The translations under genes and the position numbers were made by a program. The notes beneath the pieces were generated by a model. It ran no database searches. It was not told where the DNA came from and was given only the letters and a program-made list of their open reading frames with translations. A stretch of 53,779 nucleotides of DNA from a virus. Where the stretch lies: positions 1 through 53,779 of IMG/VR virus record IMGVR_UViG_3300012933_000343. One strand, given 5' to 3'. Positions 5,501-53,338 of this stretch are shown here, in pieces (position 1 is the first letter of the stretch; each line of letters opens with the position of its first letter).

Positions 5501-6126
5501 AAGTATTGATTGCTTGTGAATATTCAGCTCGTGTGCGCGACGCATTCAGACGCAAAGGGCATGACGCTTGGTCTTGCGATCTTCGGGAATGCGAGGGTGA
5601 CCCAGCGTTTCACATTCAAGGCGATGCGCTTGACCAGCTTCAGCCCGGAAGATGGGATCTGCTGATCGGCCACCCTTATTGCACATACAACACTCTTGCT
5701 GGCATCCGCTGGATGTACCACCCAGAGGACACGCATCTTCCAGCCGAGCAGCGCCGACGCCACCCCAGTTATCCAAATCGCATGGAGGATTTTCTCGAAG
5801 GCGTGCGGTTTTTCAACGCACTGAAGAACGCGCCCGTTCCGCTTATTGCGCTTGAAAACTCTCAGCCTCACGGATTGGCGATGCAGCACATTGGGCGCTA
5901 CGATCAAATTGTCCAGCCATGGATGTTTGGAGACCCTTACACCAAGGCAGCTGCGCTGTGGCTTAAGGGGTTGCCCAAGCTGGTCGCAACAAACCAAAAA
6001 AGCGACTACACAAAGATCATTGCAGCTTGTCACCTCATGCCACCCGGGCCGGAACGTGAAAAAGAGCGAAGTCGAACTCATCTTGGGATTGCTGAGGCCA
6101 TGGCAGAGCAGTGGGGTGGGTTATGA
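5497..6126 (+). CDS. Short DNA (cytosine-5) methyltransferase-like protein (209 aa)
   Basis: Track ORF trimmed to MKVLIACEYSARVRDAF... (ATGA overlap). The pattern LIACEYS (motif I-like), GHPYCTY (motif IV-like, Cys retained) and IALENS (ENV-like) matches a short phage C5-MTase-like family as I remember it. Confidence 0.5.
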   Translation: MKVLIACEYSARVRDAFRRKGHDAWSCDLRECEGDPAFHIQGDALDQLQPGRWDLLIGHPYCTYNTLAGIRWMYHPEDTHLPAEQRRRHPSYPNRMEDFLEGVRFFNALKNAPVPLIALENSQPHGLAMQHIGRYDQIVQPWMFGDPYTKAAALWLKGLPKLVATNQKSDYTKIIAACHLMPPGPEREKERSRTHLGIAEAMAEQWGGL

Positions 6127-6401
6127 CCTGCCCCGCATGCGCCCACCCCCGCGTCACACTGATCGACGGTACCGAGACCTGCACCTGGTCCGAGGCCTGG
6201 CGTTCTGAGACCGAAGCTCGCCACGTGCTGGCCATGCCTGGCAAGTATGAACGGCGCGAATACCTGCACGGCCGTGAGGAGGCGGGCAAGATCGTCAAGC
6301 GCGGCGTGTTTCAGGTCAGGGGCGAGGCTGCATGCCTGCAGCTTGAGGCCCAGGTGCGCAAGGTCTGGGAGCATGGCCGGAAACAACCGGGGGAAAAATG
6401 A
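6123..6401 (+). CDS. Hypothetical protein (92 aa)
   Basis: Track ORF 6111..6401 trimmed to MTCPACAHP... (ATGA overlap); N-terminal CPAC...C. Confidence 0.55.
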   Translation: MTCPACAHPRVTLIDGTETCTWSEAWRSETEARHVLAMPGKYERREYLHGREEAGKIVKRGVFQVRGEAACLQLEAQVRKVWEHGRKQPGEK

Positions 6402-6953: not shown

Positions 6954-7039
6954 TGGTGGATGCCCAGGGACTCGAACCCCGCCGCCTTTTGGGCCACAGA
7001 TTTACAGTCTGCTGCGGTCGCCAGCGCCGCCCGGCATCC
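6954..7039 (-). tRNA. tRNA-Tyr: tRNA-Tyr (anticodon GTA), class II with long variable arm, CCA encoded
   Basis: Hand-folded reverse complement: acceptor GGATGCC/GGCATCC, D stem GCGG/CCGC, anticodon stem GCAGA/TCTGT with loop CTGTAAA, 14-nt variable arm, T arm CGGGG-TTCGAGT-CCCTG, discriminator A, CCA. The anticodon arm is nearly identical to E. coli tRNA-Tyr. Confidence 0.85.
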
Positions 7040-47084: not shown

Positions 47085-47894
47085 TCACTTAGGTTGGTAT
47101 GTGCCCAAAAGCACAGGGGTTGTTTTTACTGTTGCACGAACCAGATCGGCCAGCTCGTTTGCCATTTCCTCTTCGTGCTGCTCCAGATTCTGGACACGCA
47201 AAGTGATGGTGGGTTTTTCGTTGCCGGTGCGAATGCCAAGGCGCAGCACAAACAAGCGCGATGACAGGCCGTGGTACGGCACGGTTTCGAAGTAAACCAA
47301 GGTGGGCAGCGGCTCAGTGCTGGTCGCTTGGATGCTTTCAAAAGCGCTGCGGCTGGCGGCGTGCTGCTTCTCGGTGTTCTCCATCTTGCGCATGGACTCA
47401 ATGCTCACCTTTCGAACAGCGGCGATGGCTTTGGCTGGCGAAATGGTGCCCTCGTCGTTGAAACAGGACACCATGCTGGGCCAGTCCTCCAAAAACTCGG
47501 CGATCGTTTGCTGGCTGTGGGCTTGGCCTCCCGACACCGTAAGCATGGCCTGAAATGCAGCCGTGCGGCGAGCCTCAAGCACGGCCAGGTTGTCGGCTTG
47601 GCCCGGATCTTCTGGTACCCCAAGGTTCAGGACCGCTGTGGCCGACATGGCGTCGGCGTTGACAAACACCGTGGCTCCGATCTCGGCGTGTGCTTCCACG
47701 TAGTTGGCAAAGTCTAGCAGCGCGTTGGTCTTCATCACACCGATGGCGCGGCGGCGATTGGTCTGGTGTTTTTCCAGGTCATGCAGCCGAAAGTTTTCTG
47801 GCAGCGCGGTCACAAAAGGTGCGCGGACATTGTTGTTGGCGGCGGTGATGGCCTCTGACAGTTGCAGGGCCTCGATGGCGTCTTTGTCGATCAT
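47085..47894 (-). CDS. DUF2303 / YfdQ-like protein (269 aa)
   Basis: Track ORF; aaggag SD. Overall pattern and position next to the RecT/exonuclease genes are as in YfdQ-family prophage proteins (assignment from memory of the family, moderate certainty). Confidence 0.6.
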   Translation of the reverse strand: MIDKDAIEALQLSEAITAANNNVRAPFVTALPENFRLHDLEKHQTNRRRAIGVMKTNALLDFANYVEAHAEIGATVFVNADAMSATAVLNLGVPEDPGQADNLAVLEARRTAAFQAMLTVSGGQAHSQQTIAEFLEDWPSMVSCFNDEGTISPAKAIAAVRKVSIESMRKMENTEKQHAASRSAFESIQATSTEPLPTLVYFETVPYHGLSSRLFVLRLGIRTGNEKPTITLRVQNLEQHEEEMANELADLVRATVKTTPVLLGTYQPK

Positions 47895-47903
47895 GTCAGC
47901 TCC

Positions 47904-48260
47904 TTAGACCAGCTCACCCTGCTTGCCCATCAGCGAAGGCTGAGCGAGCGAGAGAGCGCCGTACTTGCCAACGTGCAGGACGGTGGCGCGTTTTTCTTCT
48001 TCACCAGACTTGCCGTCCAGCGTGGGCTTGACAAACTTGAGCGTGTGCTCGCAGCGCACCTGGCCGGTACCGGGAATCTGCGAAAAGGACAGCTTGATGT
48101 TGACCTCGCCGACCTTGTCGTGGTCGGTACAAGCTGCGGCCACTTGGGACAGTGCGATCGAGAGCTTGCGCTCAAAGATGCCGCCGTCCAGATCGGTGAA
48201 GAACTCGGACACGTCTGTTGCGGCTGCAACGCTGATGGGGGATGGTTTGTTGTCGCTCAT
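47904..48260 (-). CDS. Hypothetical protein (118 aa)
   Basis: Track ORF; aggag SD. Confidence 0.6.
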   Translation of the reverse strand: MSDNKPSPISVAAATDVSEFFTDLDGGIFERKLSIALSQVAAACTDHDKVGEVNIKLSFSQIPGTGQVRCEHTLKFVKPTLDGKSGEEEKRATVLHVGKYGALSLAQPSLMGKQGELV

Positions 48261-48275
48261 GAAATGCTCCTGGGT

Positions 48276-48482
48276 TTAAATTGCGTCTGCGTTGTCGTTG
48301 TTGGCAACACGCTCGATGGGCACACCGGCCTCGACATAATCGCCGACGTCAGCAGTGCTGGGGTTCTCAATCACAAAGCGGTCCTTGACCAGGTGGCGCA
48401 GCACTTGGGCTTTGCTGCCTGCGCGCACAAGGCGAATGGTGTCGCTGCCGACTTCGCGGATGAGGTAAATGCGGTATTCCAT
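48276..48482 (-). CDS. Hypothetical protein (68 aa)
   Basis: Track ORF; aagga SD. Confidence 0.55.
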   Translation of the reverse strand: MEYRIYLIREVGSDTIRLVRAGSKAQVLRHLVKDRFVIENPSTADVGDYVEAGVPIERVANNDNADAI

Positions 48483-48491
48483 GAGAGGTCC

Positions 48492-48641
48492 TTAGAAACA
48501 GTTGGTTGTGCAGTTGCTGCCGTAGCAGCAGGTTGTGCAAGTGACAATTCGTCCGTTTTGCATGATGGTGTGGGTTGTGCATGCAGCCCAAGTGGTTGTG
48601 GCAACGGCGGCAAGCCAAATTGCAATTAATGTTTTCTTCAT
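48492..48641 (-). CDS. Small secreted (or lipid-anchored) Cys/Thr-rich peptide precursor (49 aa; below the track cutoff)
   Basis: Hand translation: MKKTLIAIWLAAVATTTWAACTTHTIMQNGRIVTCTTCCYGSNCTTNCF. aggaga SD 6 nt upstream. N-terminal KK + hydrophobic signal peptide ending TWA-AC. Six Cys in the C-terminal 29 residues. Preceded by a 97-nt untranslated gap. Confidence 0.55.
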   Translation of the reverse strand: MKKTLIAIWLAAVATTTWAACTTHTIMQNGRIVTCTTCCYGSNCTTNCF

Positions 48642-48738
48642 GAAGTTCTCCTGTGAGTAAAAAAGGTGGGCCTACTCGCTGCGTCTGACCTCGGACCGTA
48701 TGAGATCGTCGCACCAGCATCCGCTTTCGGCCCGTAAA

Positions 48739-49602
48739 TCAGATGGGGCTGTCGTGCTCTTCGGCTGGTTGCTGGCCAGCCGCATTGGTGGTTGGCATGT
48801 CGATCACGCCGTCGTCATCGCGCGGCGAATCGTGCCAGTGCTGCTCATCGGCCGGCGCTGGGGCCTGTTCCGCGACCTTTTGCAAGCGACTAGGGCGCTT
48901 GGCAGCCGATGGCGCTTCAGGCGCTTGTGCGGCCTCTGGCGCGGTTTGCTCGGGCATGAACAGCTCGTCGTCCTCTTTGATCATGCCGTCGATGTCGGTG
49001 GACAGCGGCAAGCGCTTGCTGTGGCGTCGCACCACGGTCTTTTTAGCCATCTCGGCAAAGTCGGTCTGCCATGGGCCTGAGTTGCCCGAGCGGCTGCGGG
49101 CTCGGATGGCGTTGACGTCCTCGACGCTCATCACCTCGCGGGATTTTTCACCATCCTTCATGGTGACGATGGAGTAGACCGCGATCAGCTTGCCCCGGTT
49201 GGAGAGCGAAGGCTTGTGCGTGATGTGCTCCTCATCGCCCAGGCAAAAATCAAAAGCGTCGTGTTCGTAGACCGCCTGCACCGACCAGGTGCTGATCTCG
49301 CCCGAGTTGCGCACCAGCTTCATGATGCCGGCAACCATTGGCATGAACTGCGCTTGGTTTTTGAAGGTGACGATTGCGCCCTCGCGGCCGTCGGGCAGCA
49401 GGCCCATCTGGCTGGCGCGCATGGCCGATGCAAACAGCGTGCGGCGATCAGCATCCAGCAGGGAGGGCGTCATCTGCACAGCGGTCATCACGACGCGCAC
49501 AAATCGCGCCGGGTCCACGTGCTTAGGAAGGGCGGCCGCAAACTGCGGCTGCATGGCGGTCAGCTGGTTTCTGACCTGGTCGACAACGGTAAGTTGGCTC
49601 AT
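48739..49602 (-). CDS. recT: RecT-family single-strand annealing recombinase (287 aa)
   Basis: Typical RecT N-terminal and core pattern (...FAAALPKHVDPARFVRVVMTAV...SLL..D..TL..A....A..GL.PDG.EG.IV.F...Q.MP...G...L...SGEI......AVYE.D.F...); aggaga SD. Confidence 0.9.
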   Translation of the reverse strand: MSQLTVVDQVRNQLTAMQPQFAAALPKHVDPARFVRVVMTAVQMTPSLLDADRRTLFASAMRASQMGLLPDGREGAIVTFKNQAQFMPMVAGIMKLVRNSGEISTWSVQAVYEHDAFDFCLGDEEHITHKPSLSNRGKLIAVYSIVTMKDGEKSREVMSVEDVNAIRARSRSGNSGPWQTDFAEMAKKTVVRRHSKRLPLSTDIDGMIKEDDELFMPEQTAPEAAQAPEAPSAAKRPSRLQKVAEQAPAPADEQHWHDSPRDDDGVIDMPTTNAAGQQPAEEHDSPI

Positions 49603-49690: not shown

Positions 49691-50644
49691 TCACTTAGTG
49701 GGCTTGCGTGGGTTTATTCGTAAATTTCTGAAGCCTTTACGCCCACCGTAGGATGTGCCCACCATGTTCTCCGTGATCAGCGTTGGGGGCGTCTCTGCCT
49801 GCATGGCGGCGCTGACCGTCCAAGCGCCGGTGAGCACCTTCTCGGCGTCCGCGATGTGCTTGAAAATTTCGGCCTTGGCCACGTCTTTGTCGTCCTTGGC
49901 GTTGGCCTCGTCGGCTGCGGCTTTTTTGTACCGCTTAATCAGATCGGCCAGCACATCGTCACTGCTGGCGTCCAGCACCTTGCCGGGCTTGGCGTACTGG
50001 TTCAAGCGGATCAGCACCTCGGCATCGCCTGGCATCACTGGGTCGGGCTCTTCGCCTGCGTCCACCGTGCGCCAGAAGTCGGCCACCTTGGCTTTGATCG
50101 CGGCGATCACATCCTCGTCGCGCAGGCGCTCGATCACCACACCTCTGTTGCCGCCGATGAATGCGCCGATGAATGCGCGCTTGAAACCCGACACAGCCAT
50201 CTGGTGCTGGACTTGCAGCTCAATGTGAATTGGGGCCTCTACTGAGCCATCTTCGTGCTCCAGCCATCCATCTCGAAACGCCAAGTAATCCACGTTTTTA
50301 ATTTCCAGATGGACGGGCTCTCCAAGGCTTGTGATCACAAAATCAAAGCTCGAACCCATGCGTAAATCAGGATTCCTGAAATACTCCTTCATCGGTTTAA
50401 TCTCCCAGCCTTGCTCTTCTGCAATGCCATAAGCAATTGCCGCTTCCAGCCGGTTTCCCCATGCCATTCGATCATTTGTTTTGAACTCTGGAACAATCCC
50501 GGTGCGCTTGCGGTGCCAAAGATCAAAATGTGTCATGTAAGGGCTTTCGCCAAACAAGCATGCCGATTCGGTGGATGTCACGTCTAGCTTGCGCATGGCA
50601 AGCCAGTGTTCTTGGTTGCTGGGTACGATAATTTCAGTGGTCAT
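49691..50644 (-). CDS. YqaJ-type (lambda Exo-like) recombination exonuclease with a C-terminal extension (317 aa)
   Basis: Track ORF 49691..50752 trimmed to MTTEIIVPSNQEHWLAMRKLDVTSTESACLFGESPY... (ATGA overlap). YqaJ N-terminal signature plus the D...E.K nuclease core (LEIKNV). About 100 extra C-terminal residues. Confidence 0.8.
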   Translation of the reverse strand: MTTEIIVPSNQEHWLAMRKLDVTSTESACLFGESPYMTHFDLWHRKRTGIVPEFKTNDRMAWGNRLEAAIAYGIAEEQGWEIKPMKEYFRNPDLRMGSSFDFVITSLGEPVHLEIKNVDYLAFRDGWLEHEDGSVEAPIHIELQVQHQMAVSGFKRAFIGAFIGGNRGVVIERLRDEDVIAAIKAKVADFWRTVDAGEEPDPVMPGDAEVLIRLNQYAKPGKVLDASSDDVLADLIKRYKKAAADEANAKDDKDVAKAEIFKHIADAEKVLTGAWTVSAAMQAETPPTLITENMVGTSYGGRKGFRNLRINPRKPTK

Positions 50645-51090
50645 GCGGCTCTCCTTGCGCGTTGTGCGTCCATCCTGCATTGGTGGCAATAGCGTCGGCC
50701 ATCTGGCCGGATTCGAAGGTTCTCGCCAGTCAGGCTGTGGCCACGCTGGCATTCTGTTTGCGATCCTCGGCGATATGCGTCGCCTCGTTTTTTGGAAATC
50801 ATGTCCTGCATGTTTTTGCTGTGCGTACCTGAAAACAAGTGATCAGGGTTGCAGCAACTTGGCACATCACAGTGGTGGCAAATCTCTTGGCCTGGCGGTA
50901 TCTCGCCGACAAAGTGTTGGAATGAAACTCGGTGCGTGTACACCATTCGAGCGTTCCCTGCCTCGGTGTAGCCGCTACCAATCAAGCCATAACCACCGCG
51001 AGCTGTTGTGCCTGTCCAGATCCAGCAGCCAGAAAATGGCACGCGCTGAATCTTGTCAAGCAATCGATCAATCACTGGTCTTTTTTTCAT
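50641..51090 (-). CDS. HNH endonuclease (149 aa)
   Basis: Track ORF 50641..51165 trimmed to MKKRPVIDRL... (ggagg SD). GYGLIG...YTHRVSF......G..ICHHCDVPSCCNPDHLF.GTH..N is the classic phage HNH pattern; C-terminal CQRGH...YCHQC. Confidence 0.88.
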   Translation of the reverse strand: MKKRPVIDRLLDKIQRVPFSGCWIWTGTTARGGYGLIGSGYTEAGNARMVYTHRVSFQHFVGEIPPGQEICHHCDVPSCCNPDHLFSGTHSKNMQDMISKKRGDAYRRGSQTECQRGHSLTGENLRIRPDGRRYCHQCRMDAQRARRAA

Positions 51091-52665: not shown

Positions 52666-52859
52666 GCTTGCACCTTTGGGATGTCGCGCCATGTTCCGCA
52701 CACTGGTCTAAACATATCGCCACACACCTCCTTGCCGTCCGGGTGCTCCCAAAACTGCTGAAGGATATTTACCGTGCGTGCGGTGCAGTGAGTGGCGTGG
52801 CGTTCCACAATCTCTTGGCGCTCAACGAAGCGCAGGTATAGGGTTGGTATAGGTGTCAT
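52662..52859 (-). CDS. Hypothetical protein (65 aa)
   Basis: Track ORF 52662..52892 trimmed to MTPIPTLYLRF... (aaggagaag SD; ATGA overlap). Confidence 0.5.
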   Translation of the reverse strand: MTPIPTLYLRFVERQEIVERHATHCTARTVNILQQFWEHPDGKEVCGDMFRPVCGTWRDIPKVQA

Positions 52860-53338
52860 GTGTTCTTCTCCTTGAGTTTGGTGTTCATCCATTCAACCAG
52901 CTCGTCTGTTGTCCATTCGGATTCTTTTATCCACTGTTTCTCATCATCCGTCAGCCCAACCCATTGCCGCTGTGCTGCGGGTGGGGTGATAAGCATGGCG
53001 CGGAGTTCGGCTTTTGCTTGCTCTGCGTCTTCAAGCCCATTGCCAGAGTCAAAGCGCCCACCGACAAGTGACCAAGCCGATGCAAAGACTTGCGCTTGCT
53101 CCATCACGGAATCAATCCACGCCGCAGGCTCCTGCACAACAGGTGCTGGCTGTGCGGGTGTGCCGAGAGCCAGAACCTGTGTCAAAAGTTCTTTTGCGGC
53201 GGCTGGGCGCATCCACGGGTCAAGTAATGCAATTTGCGCATTGCTGGGCTCCTGCACAGGTGCTGCTCGGTCAAACAACTCAGGCAGTCGCTTGTACAGC
53301 ATTTCAATCAGTTCTTTGGTTGTTGGATGAACTTTCAT
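52856..53338 (-). CDS. Hypothetical protein (160 aa) with APVQEP-type linkers and a C-terminal WVGLTDDE...KLKEKNT module
   Basis: Track ORF; the C-terminal module is paralogous to 44760..45014. Confidence 0.6.
   Translation of the reverse strand: MKVHPTTKELIEMLYKRLPELFDRAAPVQEPSNAQIALLDPWMRPAAAKELLTQVLALGTPAQPAPVVQEPAAWIDSVMEQAQVFASAWSLVGGRFDSGNGLEDAEQAKAELRAMLITPPAAQRQWVGLTDDEKQWIKESEWTTDELVEWMNTKLKEKNT

Follow-up and report, generated by a model that had tools for sequence, protein, structure and literature searches.

A widespread accessory gene of uncultured phages encodes a 49-residue mini-protein, predicted to be exported by Sec and folded as a disulfide-rich beta-sheet

A 49-codon open reading frame (ORF) in the early region of an uncultured phage is, with virtual certainty, a real gene, and comparison with its relatives places it in a large, unnamed and almost phage-only family that evolves under strong purifying selection. 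It sits in the genome as an accessory cassette, and its product is predicted to be the precursor of a secreted, cysteine-rich peptide. We strongly infer that this precursor is translated, exported through the Sec pathway, cleaved by signal peptidase I (SPase I) and folded oxidatively into a rigid 3-kDa sheet that needs no phage partner. An explanation that joins these steps to an action of the peptide on the host envelope has, in our judgement, about an even chance of being right as a whole.

The stretch of DNA analysed here (the window) is an IMG/VR virus record, complete at 53,779 bp and carrying direct terminal repeats (DTR); its genes include a helicase, a primase, a terminase, a ParB-methyltransferase fusion and a Mu Gam-like protein. 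The mini-protein gene occupies positions 48492..48641 on the minus strand (49 codons plus TAA; ATG at 48639-48641, stop at 48492-48494), which confirms an ORF, together with its translation, that an initial annotation of the sequence had pointed out as missing from the gene track. The same annotation credited it with a good Shine-Dalgarno (SD) sequence, AGGAGA, at a spacing of 6 nt; the motif is present (48647..48652, minus strand), but it ends 5 nt before the ATG, and 6 nt is reached only from the GGAG core. Upstream, across a gap of 97 nt (48642..48738), lies recT, encoding a single-stranded DNA annealing protein (48739..49602, minus strand; PF03837, E 1.6e-43), and beyond it a YqaJ-type exonuclease gene (49691..50752). 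Downstream on the same strand is p68 (48276..48482), which directly follows recT in most relatives; its 68-residue product matched no family, and 25 viral loci encode relatives of it at 73-100% identity. After p68, and likewise on the minus strand, come genes for a 118-residue protein (p118), a DUF2303 protein and an HTH_17 protein. The long leftward early operon that contains the YqaJ and RecT genes also encodes a 160-residue protein (52856-53338, minus strand) matching a PHROG of Mu Gam-like end-protection or host-nuclease-inhibitor proteins. The GC content of the ORF, measured at 0.48 against 0.59 for the window, bears out the earlier estimate of about 49% versus about 60%. Part of this deficit stems from amino-acid composition, since the codon usage of the neighbouring genes would give the same protein an expected GC of 0.55; GC3 is low nevertheless, at 0.56 compared with 0.66-0.79 in five neighbouring genes.

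Conservation of the reading frame in relatives had been set as a test of the ORF, and the substitution pattern among 66 distinct gapless relatives of 150 nt points clearly to purifying selection, with pS at 0.69, pN at 0.19 and a dN/dS of about 0.12. Synonymous sites in the mini-protein frame are saturated and non-synonymous change is low, the variable columns at codon positions 1, 2 and 3 numbering 25, 29 and 48, respectively. The frame is open in 80/80 fetched viral loci, and all 59 distinct upstream contexts present an ATG start preceded, 4-20 nt upstream, by an SD core (GGAG, GAGG or AGGA). The other five frames, by comparison, carry stops in 35-66 of the 66 distinct relatives. These data bear directly on the possibility that the real gene is one of the overlapping ORFs, or that the region is non-coding. 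Three such ORFs exceed the mini-protein ORF in length (48367..48720 and 48371..48625 on the minus strand, and 47862..48629 on the plus strand), but long spurious ORFs are expected at 59% GC, and these three are interrupted by stops in 45/66, 66/66 and 35/66 distinct relatives, respectively. They also cross the p68 gene and an indel border present in most relatives, and variation clusters at third positions of the 49-codon frame. The two minus-strand ORFs had been named at the outset as possible alternative genes and can be dismissed; on these comparisons the overlapping-ORF or non-coding reading is effectively excluded, with a negligible probability.

A word-indexed search of 5.8 billion proteins returned 38 clusters of relatives at 90% identity, nearly all exactly 49 residues long and 63-92% identical, none of which carries a name. 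An exhaustive profile search of 1.84 billion representatives extended the family to 242 clusters at 50% identity (E<=0.001); almost all members are 45-60 residues long, the few longer ones being upstream read-through of the same small ORF, and no fused forms occur among these clusters. In IMG/VR, at least 548 contigs encode relatives. The mature part matched no family in Pfam (E<=0.01), PHROGs or NCBIfam, so that none of the protein-family libraries searched contains the family; a profile search of PDB sequences gave a chance match alone (E 4.5), and our searches found no published description of it. A small exported accessory phage protein is in itself a known kind of gene; it is the present architecture and family that are new to the searched libraries.

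Among 50,697 phage records searched by tblastn, no cultured phage carries a relative, and the only matches are in two metagenome-assembled phages from one Florida spring, so no host can be named from isolates. In one of these records (MW202462.1, L086; 817-1059) the depositor annotates a 243-nt ORF on the opposite strand across the mini-protein homologue, which is itself unannotated; the other GenBank record lists only a hypothetical protein under the match. Across 185,579 bacterial species genomes, a relative was found on one 1.6-kb contig of a metagenome-assembled genome alone, which we treat as a binned phage fragment. Small phage genes are missed systematically, and this 49-codon gene ranks among the more widely distributed accessory genes in uncultured phages, mostly from fresh water; even with a modest role, the family merits a name and a Pfam or PHROGs model for annotation.

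Codons 1-19 (48585..48641, minus strand) encode a predicted signal peptide that opens with Met-Lys-Lys, continues with a hydrophobic stretch of some 15 residues and closes with Thr-Trp-Ala, a small-x-Ala site for SPase I. The initial description of a Lys-Lys plus hydrophobic signal sequence holds for the family: although the first 19 residues vary in sequence, their Sec-signal features are retained. Conservation of Lys2 and Lys3 reaches at least 90%, and 203/209 sequences have a net charge of +1 or +2 over the first six residues; the median length up to Ala19 is 19 residues, and the most hydrophobic 10-residue stretch has a Kyte-Doolittle mean of 2.64 in the median case and of 1.63 at the lowest. 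The weak matches obtained in NCBIfam all fall on signal peptides of exported proteins. Ala19 is found in 221 of the 234 distinct sequences, whereas the residue that follows it varies (A 84, S 62, N 20, T 12, G 10, Q 9, E 9, R 8, D 7); in 229/230 sequences the first Cys is preceded, at a distance of 0-4 residues, by a site that obeys the -3/-1 rule, the distance being exactly one residue in 190. Because Ala19 is kept while both the next residue and the spacing to the Cys vary, cleavage by SPase I is favoured and a conserved lipoprotein disfavoured, and on these sequence features the precursor is very probably exported by Sec and cut after Ala19.

The initial annotation had allowed that the same site might act as a relaxed lipobox with Cys21, but comparison across the family does not support this suggestion. 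The N-terminal segment would in that case escape SPase I and either carry a lipid on Cys21 or act as a membrane anchor, leaving the Cys-rich part in the periplasm. Thr-Trp-Ala-Ala-Cys in the window does fit a loose PROSITE-like lipobox, as do the corresponding residues of 103/230 relatives, one weak NCBIfam match falls on a lipoprotein signal (YgdI/YgdR, E 0.48), and the phage exclusion proteins Llp and Cor are lipoproteins. The strict lipobox [LVI][ASTVI][GAS]C, however, is present in only 10/230; the -1 residue lies outside A, G and S in 32% of the 230 (N, T, Q, E, R, D, Y, H, K, F or V in 74), and the spacing from the Ala site to the Cys ranges from 0 to 4 residues, as in Ala-Glu-Tyr-Arg-Cys. 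Moreover, Cys21 co-varies with Cys38 as a disulfide partner, and a stable membrane anchor would be expected to have a longer hydrophobic core than the roughly 15 residues present here. We accordingly attach little weight to a lipidated or anchored form and continue with a peptide released by SPase I.

The mature peptide of 30 residues, Ala20-Phe49 (48495..48584, minus strand), matches the Cys/Thr-rich peptide of 28-30 residues originally proposed to follow the signal, and has six Cys that are invariant apart from the losses considered below, with the spacing C-x13-C-x2-CC-x4-C-x3-C. The count of six Cys in 29 residues given for the window was right, but from Cys21 onwards there are eight Thr, not nine. 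Thr23, Thr25, Thr36, Thr37, Thr46, Gly30, Gly41 and Arg/Lys31 are near-invariant, the two Gly lying one in each turn, and positions 26, 40 and 49 are often aromatic. AlphaFold2, run on the mature part alone with a 115-row alignment, returned a mean pLDDT of 93.9 and three strands (mature residues 2-9, 12-21 and 24-29); the whole precursor gave a pLDDT of 80, its signal peptide being helical and the three strands recurring.

The disulfide pattern was read from covariation and strand register. All six Cys are kept in 223 of the 234 distinct sequences, and the exceptions are mostly paired: C21 and C38 are lost together in four sequences and C39 and C44 in another four, unpaired loss being seen in only three. 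The sequences lacking C39 and C44 are not each other's nearest relatives, so this loss probably had more than one origin; those lacking C21 and C38 may be a single clade and one evolutionary event. It is exactly at the two hairpin tips that loops differ in length among relatives. If the turns comprise two residues each, 29-30 and 41-42, the strand boundaries of the model suggest a register in which the cross-strand partners would be 21/38, 35/48 and 39/44, and the two observed paired losses, C21-C38 and C39-C44, match the partners implied by the AlphaFold strand boundaries. Covariation and strand register together make it probable that the peptide is a three-stranded antiparallel sheet pinned by C21-C38, C35-C48 and C39-C44. 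In terms of the model, we read it as a beta-meander with disulfides 1-3, 2-6 and 4-5, without a hydrophobic core and with conserved Thr on both faces; we also strongly infer that the hairpin tip, Asn/Asp/Gly-Gly-Arg/Lys, is conserved. Metal binding by Cys and His was considered and rejected, as the Cys act as disulfide pairs and many members have Gln, Asn, Thr or Tyr in place of His24. Prediction of a homodimer of the mature peptide scored 0.03, which speaks neither for nor against a dimer.

Structure searches did not place this fold in a named family. The best matches of the mature peptide (VIA Z 3.8; Foldseek against the PDB, E 0.45) are generic three-stranded meanders inside larger proteins, those of the whole precursor reach Z<=3.3, and the ESM Atlas, queried by shape and by features, yielded only generic meanders or the family's own unnamed clusters. 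The arrangement of the Thr residues raises the idea that a flat, Thr-rich sheet binds a polymer, such as peptidoglycan glycan strands, LPS sugars or ice-like water, and so alters the wall or envelope during infection. The Thr-x-Thr pairs, one on each of three adjacent strands, are reminiscent of insect antifreeze proteins: Thr23/Thr25, Thr34/Thr36 and Thr45/(Asn or Thr)47 are conserved and would share one face in the predicted register, a row formed by Thr22, Thr37 and Thr46 would occupy the other, aromatic residues are common at the positions noted above, and the habitat is mainly fresh water. The available surface, on the other hand, consists of three short, twisted antiparallel strands and is far smaller than the faces with which known proteins bind ice or carbohydrate; sequence searches matched no lectin, hevein, LysM or antifreeze family, and the structural matches are those same generic meanders, with Z<=3.8. 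Polymer binding is for these reasons an improbable account of the peptide.

Several known groups of small disulfide-rich or modified peptides resemble the mini-protein without, on our evidence, including it. Heat-stable enterotoxins, as generally known, share with it a signal peptide, a tiny mature part, six Cys including an adjacent Cys-Cys, a C-terminal aromatic residue and, presumably, oxidation in the periplasm; the mini-protein differs in its lack of a pro-region, its Cys spacing and its predicted beta-sheet, as opposed to a compact turn structure. Membership in that group was rejected, there being no Pfam match at E<=0.01 and the predicted connectivity being 1-3, 2-6, 4-5 versus 1-4, 2-5, 3-6. 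Defensins are likewise peptides of about 30 residues with three antiparallel strands and three disulfides, but alpha- and beta-defensins differ from the predicted connectivity, the mini-protein is near neutral and not cationic, and structure searches with it returned no defensin. A precursor of a ribosomally synthesised and modified peptide (lanthipeptide or SCIFF/ranthipeptide) was also rejected: the neighbouring genes serve recombination, replication or regulation, the precursor begins with a Sec signal, and the Cys-rich core has no NCBIfam match. No maturase gene (LanM, LanB, LanC or radical SAM) lies beside the mini-protein gene in the contexts examined.

Comparison of the recT-p68 region across relatives indicates that the mini-protein gene is an accessory insertion. 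Among the 25 p68-bearing loci, 23 fetched relatives encode both RecT and p68, and only four of these carry the gene, whereas in 15 gene-less relatives p68 follows recT after a spacer of 97-151 nt with the same SD. An alignment of four carriers and four gene-less relatives delimits a segment of about 159 nt (48489..48647, minus strand) that is missing in close relatives and comprises the ORF and a second SD-like GGA that now precedes p68; in the gene-less sequences the conserved spacer and CAGGAG lead directly into the p68 start. The borders of the segment are clean, with an ambiguity of a few nucleotides, both lying in SD-like AGGA(G), and the AGGAGA at 48647..48652 that stands before the mini-protein ATG in the window serves p68 in gene-less relatives. 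A metatranscriptome contig that joins 48483 to 48659 with 19 other letters between them represents the same gene-less junction. These alignments show the gene to be an accessory cassette whose borders lie in what appears to be SD-like microhomology. Since gene-less relatives keep the same spacer, the 97-nt gap is the old recT-p68 leader and not a private regulatory region; the gap noted initially is thus correct in length, but it is a pre-existing spacer and not a property of the ORF.

The description of the gene as moron-like holds in part. As in phage morons, it is inserted between genes that are adjacent in most relatives, has a lower GC3 than its neighbours and recurs in many unrelated phage backbones, as would a horizontally moving accessory gene; its low GC3 and the GC of family loci (median 0.46, range 0.40-0.63) fit an import from lower-GC phages. 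Unlike morons, it has no promoter or terminator of its own that we could detect: a simple, weak consensus scan gave no sigma-70-like site flanking the ORF or in the 97-nt gap, and no flanking terminator. Instead it uses the SD and leader of the gene that it displaced, and in other phages it is translationally coupled to the upstream gene by an ATGA overlap. Other inserts, of about 660-1100 nt, occupy the recT-p68 site in four relatives (L090, L093, L097 and L107, at the position equivalent to 48483-48740 of the window), which marks the junction as an insertion hot spot. In L093 the insert is a coding-like, Gly-rich and highly repetitive sequence that immediately precedes the peptide gene.

Outside this locus the gene occurs in quite different surroundings. 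Only the two closest of the 80 fetched loci share RecT, p68, p118 and the DUF2303 protein with the window, so no neighbour in the window is a conserved partner. In the other 78 loci the gene is found in two main arrangements: in one, the gene follows a Cro-like gene (PF14549) with an ATGA overlap and precedes a DUF1376/O-like replication initiator; in the other, it follows Erf and a small gene and precedes a winged-helix protein gene and MazG. In L083 it lies after a Sak4-like AAA_24/DUF669 pair, in a phage that also has an integrase, and in L085, a 26-kb contig, it lies at 6001-6156 between a PDDEXK exonuclease and an Erf annealing protein, splitting what is normally a two-gene recombination unit. 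All examined contexts place the gene in an early recombination, replication or regulation region, and none provides a constant partner beside it. An association with tRNA genes was rejected: the 58 related loci hold no tRNA, and the only one in the window, a tRNA-Tyr (6954-7039, minus strand), is 41 kb away.

The nearest cultured relatives of the window's RecT belong to Burkholderia and Ralstonia phages, which makes a betaproteobacterial host a reasonable guess. Most of the sequencing runs with words in common with the region are freshwater metagenomes, the best holders sharing at most 0.27 of the sampled words. No tyrosine integrase was found in the window genome, which is probably that of a virulent or non-integrating phage of a betaproteobacterium, and the DTR together with this absence mean that a lysogen setting may not apply to it. 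The early-operon position, the missing tyrosine integrase and the rarity of the family in bacterial genomes make expression during lytic infection likely. The RNA record consists of one short contig (48470-48584) from one metatranscriptome library, and contigs from RNA libraries may derive from DNA.

Taken with the predicted processing, these features suggest a course of events in which the mini-protein would be made early in lytic infection, the precursor would be exported via Sec and cut after Ala19 by SPase I, and the 30-residue product would fold in the oxidising periplasm with its three cross-strand disulfides. The folded peptide would then act alone, binding a conserved component of the envelope in the periplasm. 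Because nearly its entire surface is strongly conserved, the whole peptide may be a binding surface for a host component conserved across genera, a reading also suggested by its spread over phages of very different GC, its presumed early expression and its delivery to the periplasm. On these grounds we lean slightly towards an envelope-targeting effector of some kind; no homology in Pfam, PHROGs, NCBIfam or the PDB links the peptide to a target. The most likely effect would be to block adsorption or DNA entry by competing phages, or re-adsorption of progeny, as T4 Sp and Imm and T5 Llp do; this specific role in exclusion, receptor blocking or entry blocking is proposed by analogy and is tentative.

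The analogy rests on a well-known set of proteins. T5 Llp and phi80/HK022 Cor are phage receptor-blocking proteins and T4 Sp and Imm are early superinfection-exclusion proteins; all four are small, exported and non-essential early or accessory products that act in the envelope of the infected cell without a phage partner, and the mini-protein gene resembles theirs in being early-positioned and accessory. Llp and Cor, however, are roughly 60-70-residue lipoproteins and Imm and Sp have membrane anchors, whereas the mini-protein has no conserved lipobox, a mature part of 30 residues and three predicted disulfides, and it shows no sequence or PHROG relation to any of them. To our knowledge, exclusion proteins of the envelope type are lipoproteins or membrane proteins and not soluble 3-kDa peptides, which counts against exclusion. 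It is conceivable, although we hold this with considerable reserve, that the family represents a new effector class: a soluble, Sec-exported, triple-disulfide beta-sheet mini-protein that phages of many freshwater bacteria would exchange and would deliver to the periplasm early in infection, where it would plug or mask some widely conserved machine of the envelope, for example a receptor, the route of DNA entry, or a protein of outer-membrane assembly or transport. The existence of a periplasmic gatekeeper mechanism is illustrated by HxsA, which is described as the processed periplasmic effector of the bacterial HXS defence, stopping phage DNA entry (PMC13128918). [quoted passage not shown]

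A soluble, disulfide-stabilised 3-kDa peptide would suit an extracellular, post-lysis role equally well, and the peptide might act outside its producer, freed at lysis or through an outer-membrane channel, either as a signal between infections or on neighbouring cells in the manner of a bacteriocin or toxin. Its very small size, three predicted disulfides and near-neutral charge (net 0 or +1 in 208/234 sequences) are typical of stable extracellular peptides, and Sec-exported triple-disulfide peptides that leave Gram-negative cells exist, heat-stable enterotoxins being a generally known example. In many phages, moreover, the gene lies directly between the Cro-like gene and the replication initiator, the slot that the lysis-lysogeny regulator cII occupies in lambda. 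These points are offset by the lack of a receptor-like or transporter gene accompanying the peptide gene across contexts, by the quick dilution that a released peptide would undergo in open fresh water, the main habitat, and by the lack of similarity to known bacteriocin, pheromone or enterotoxin families, and we regard an action outside the producer as unlikely.

Should the preferred reading hold and the peptide block an envelope component, it would represent a new mechanism of phage-phage competition and provide a natural ligand, a stable peptide of very small size, for a conserved target in the Gram-negative envelope; if the new-class reading were true, that ligand would be a natural peptide inhibitor of such a target. 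The family also has a confidently predicted fold and a disulfide map obtained from sequence covariation.

The leader that the gene now uses is a conserved, RNA-like element. Downstream of recT, the spacer at 48659..48734 (minus strand) can form an outer stem, CGGGCC/GGCCC, with a middle of variable length, followed by a run of six T. Its consensus comprises 14 pairs, five of them with compensatory changes, and the outer stem shows compensatory G-C to C-G swaps in several relatives. The fold of the single sequence is no better than that of shuffled sequences (z -0.16), and no Rfam family was matched in the spacer region. The structured spacer is also present in gene-less relatives and hence predates the peptide gene; possible roles are those of a terminator or an attenuator separating recT from the early genes further downstream.
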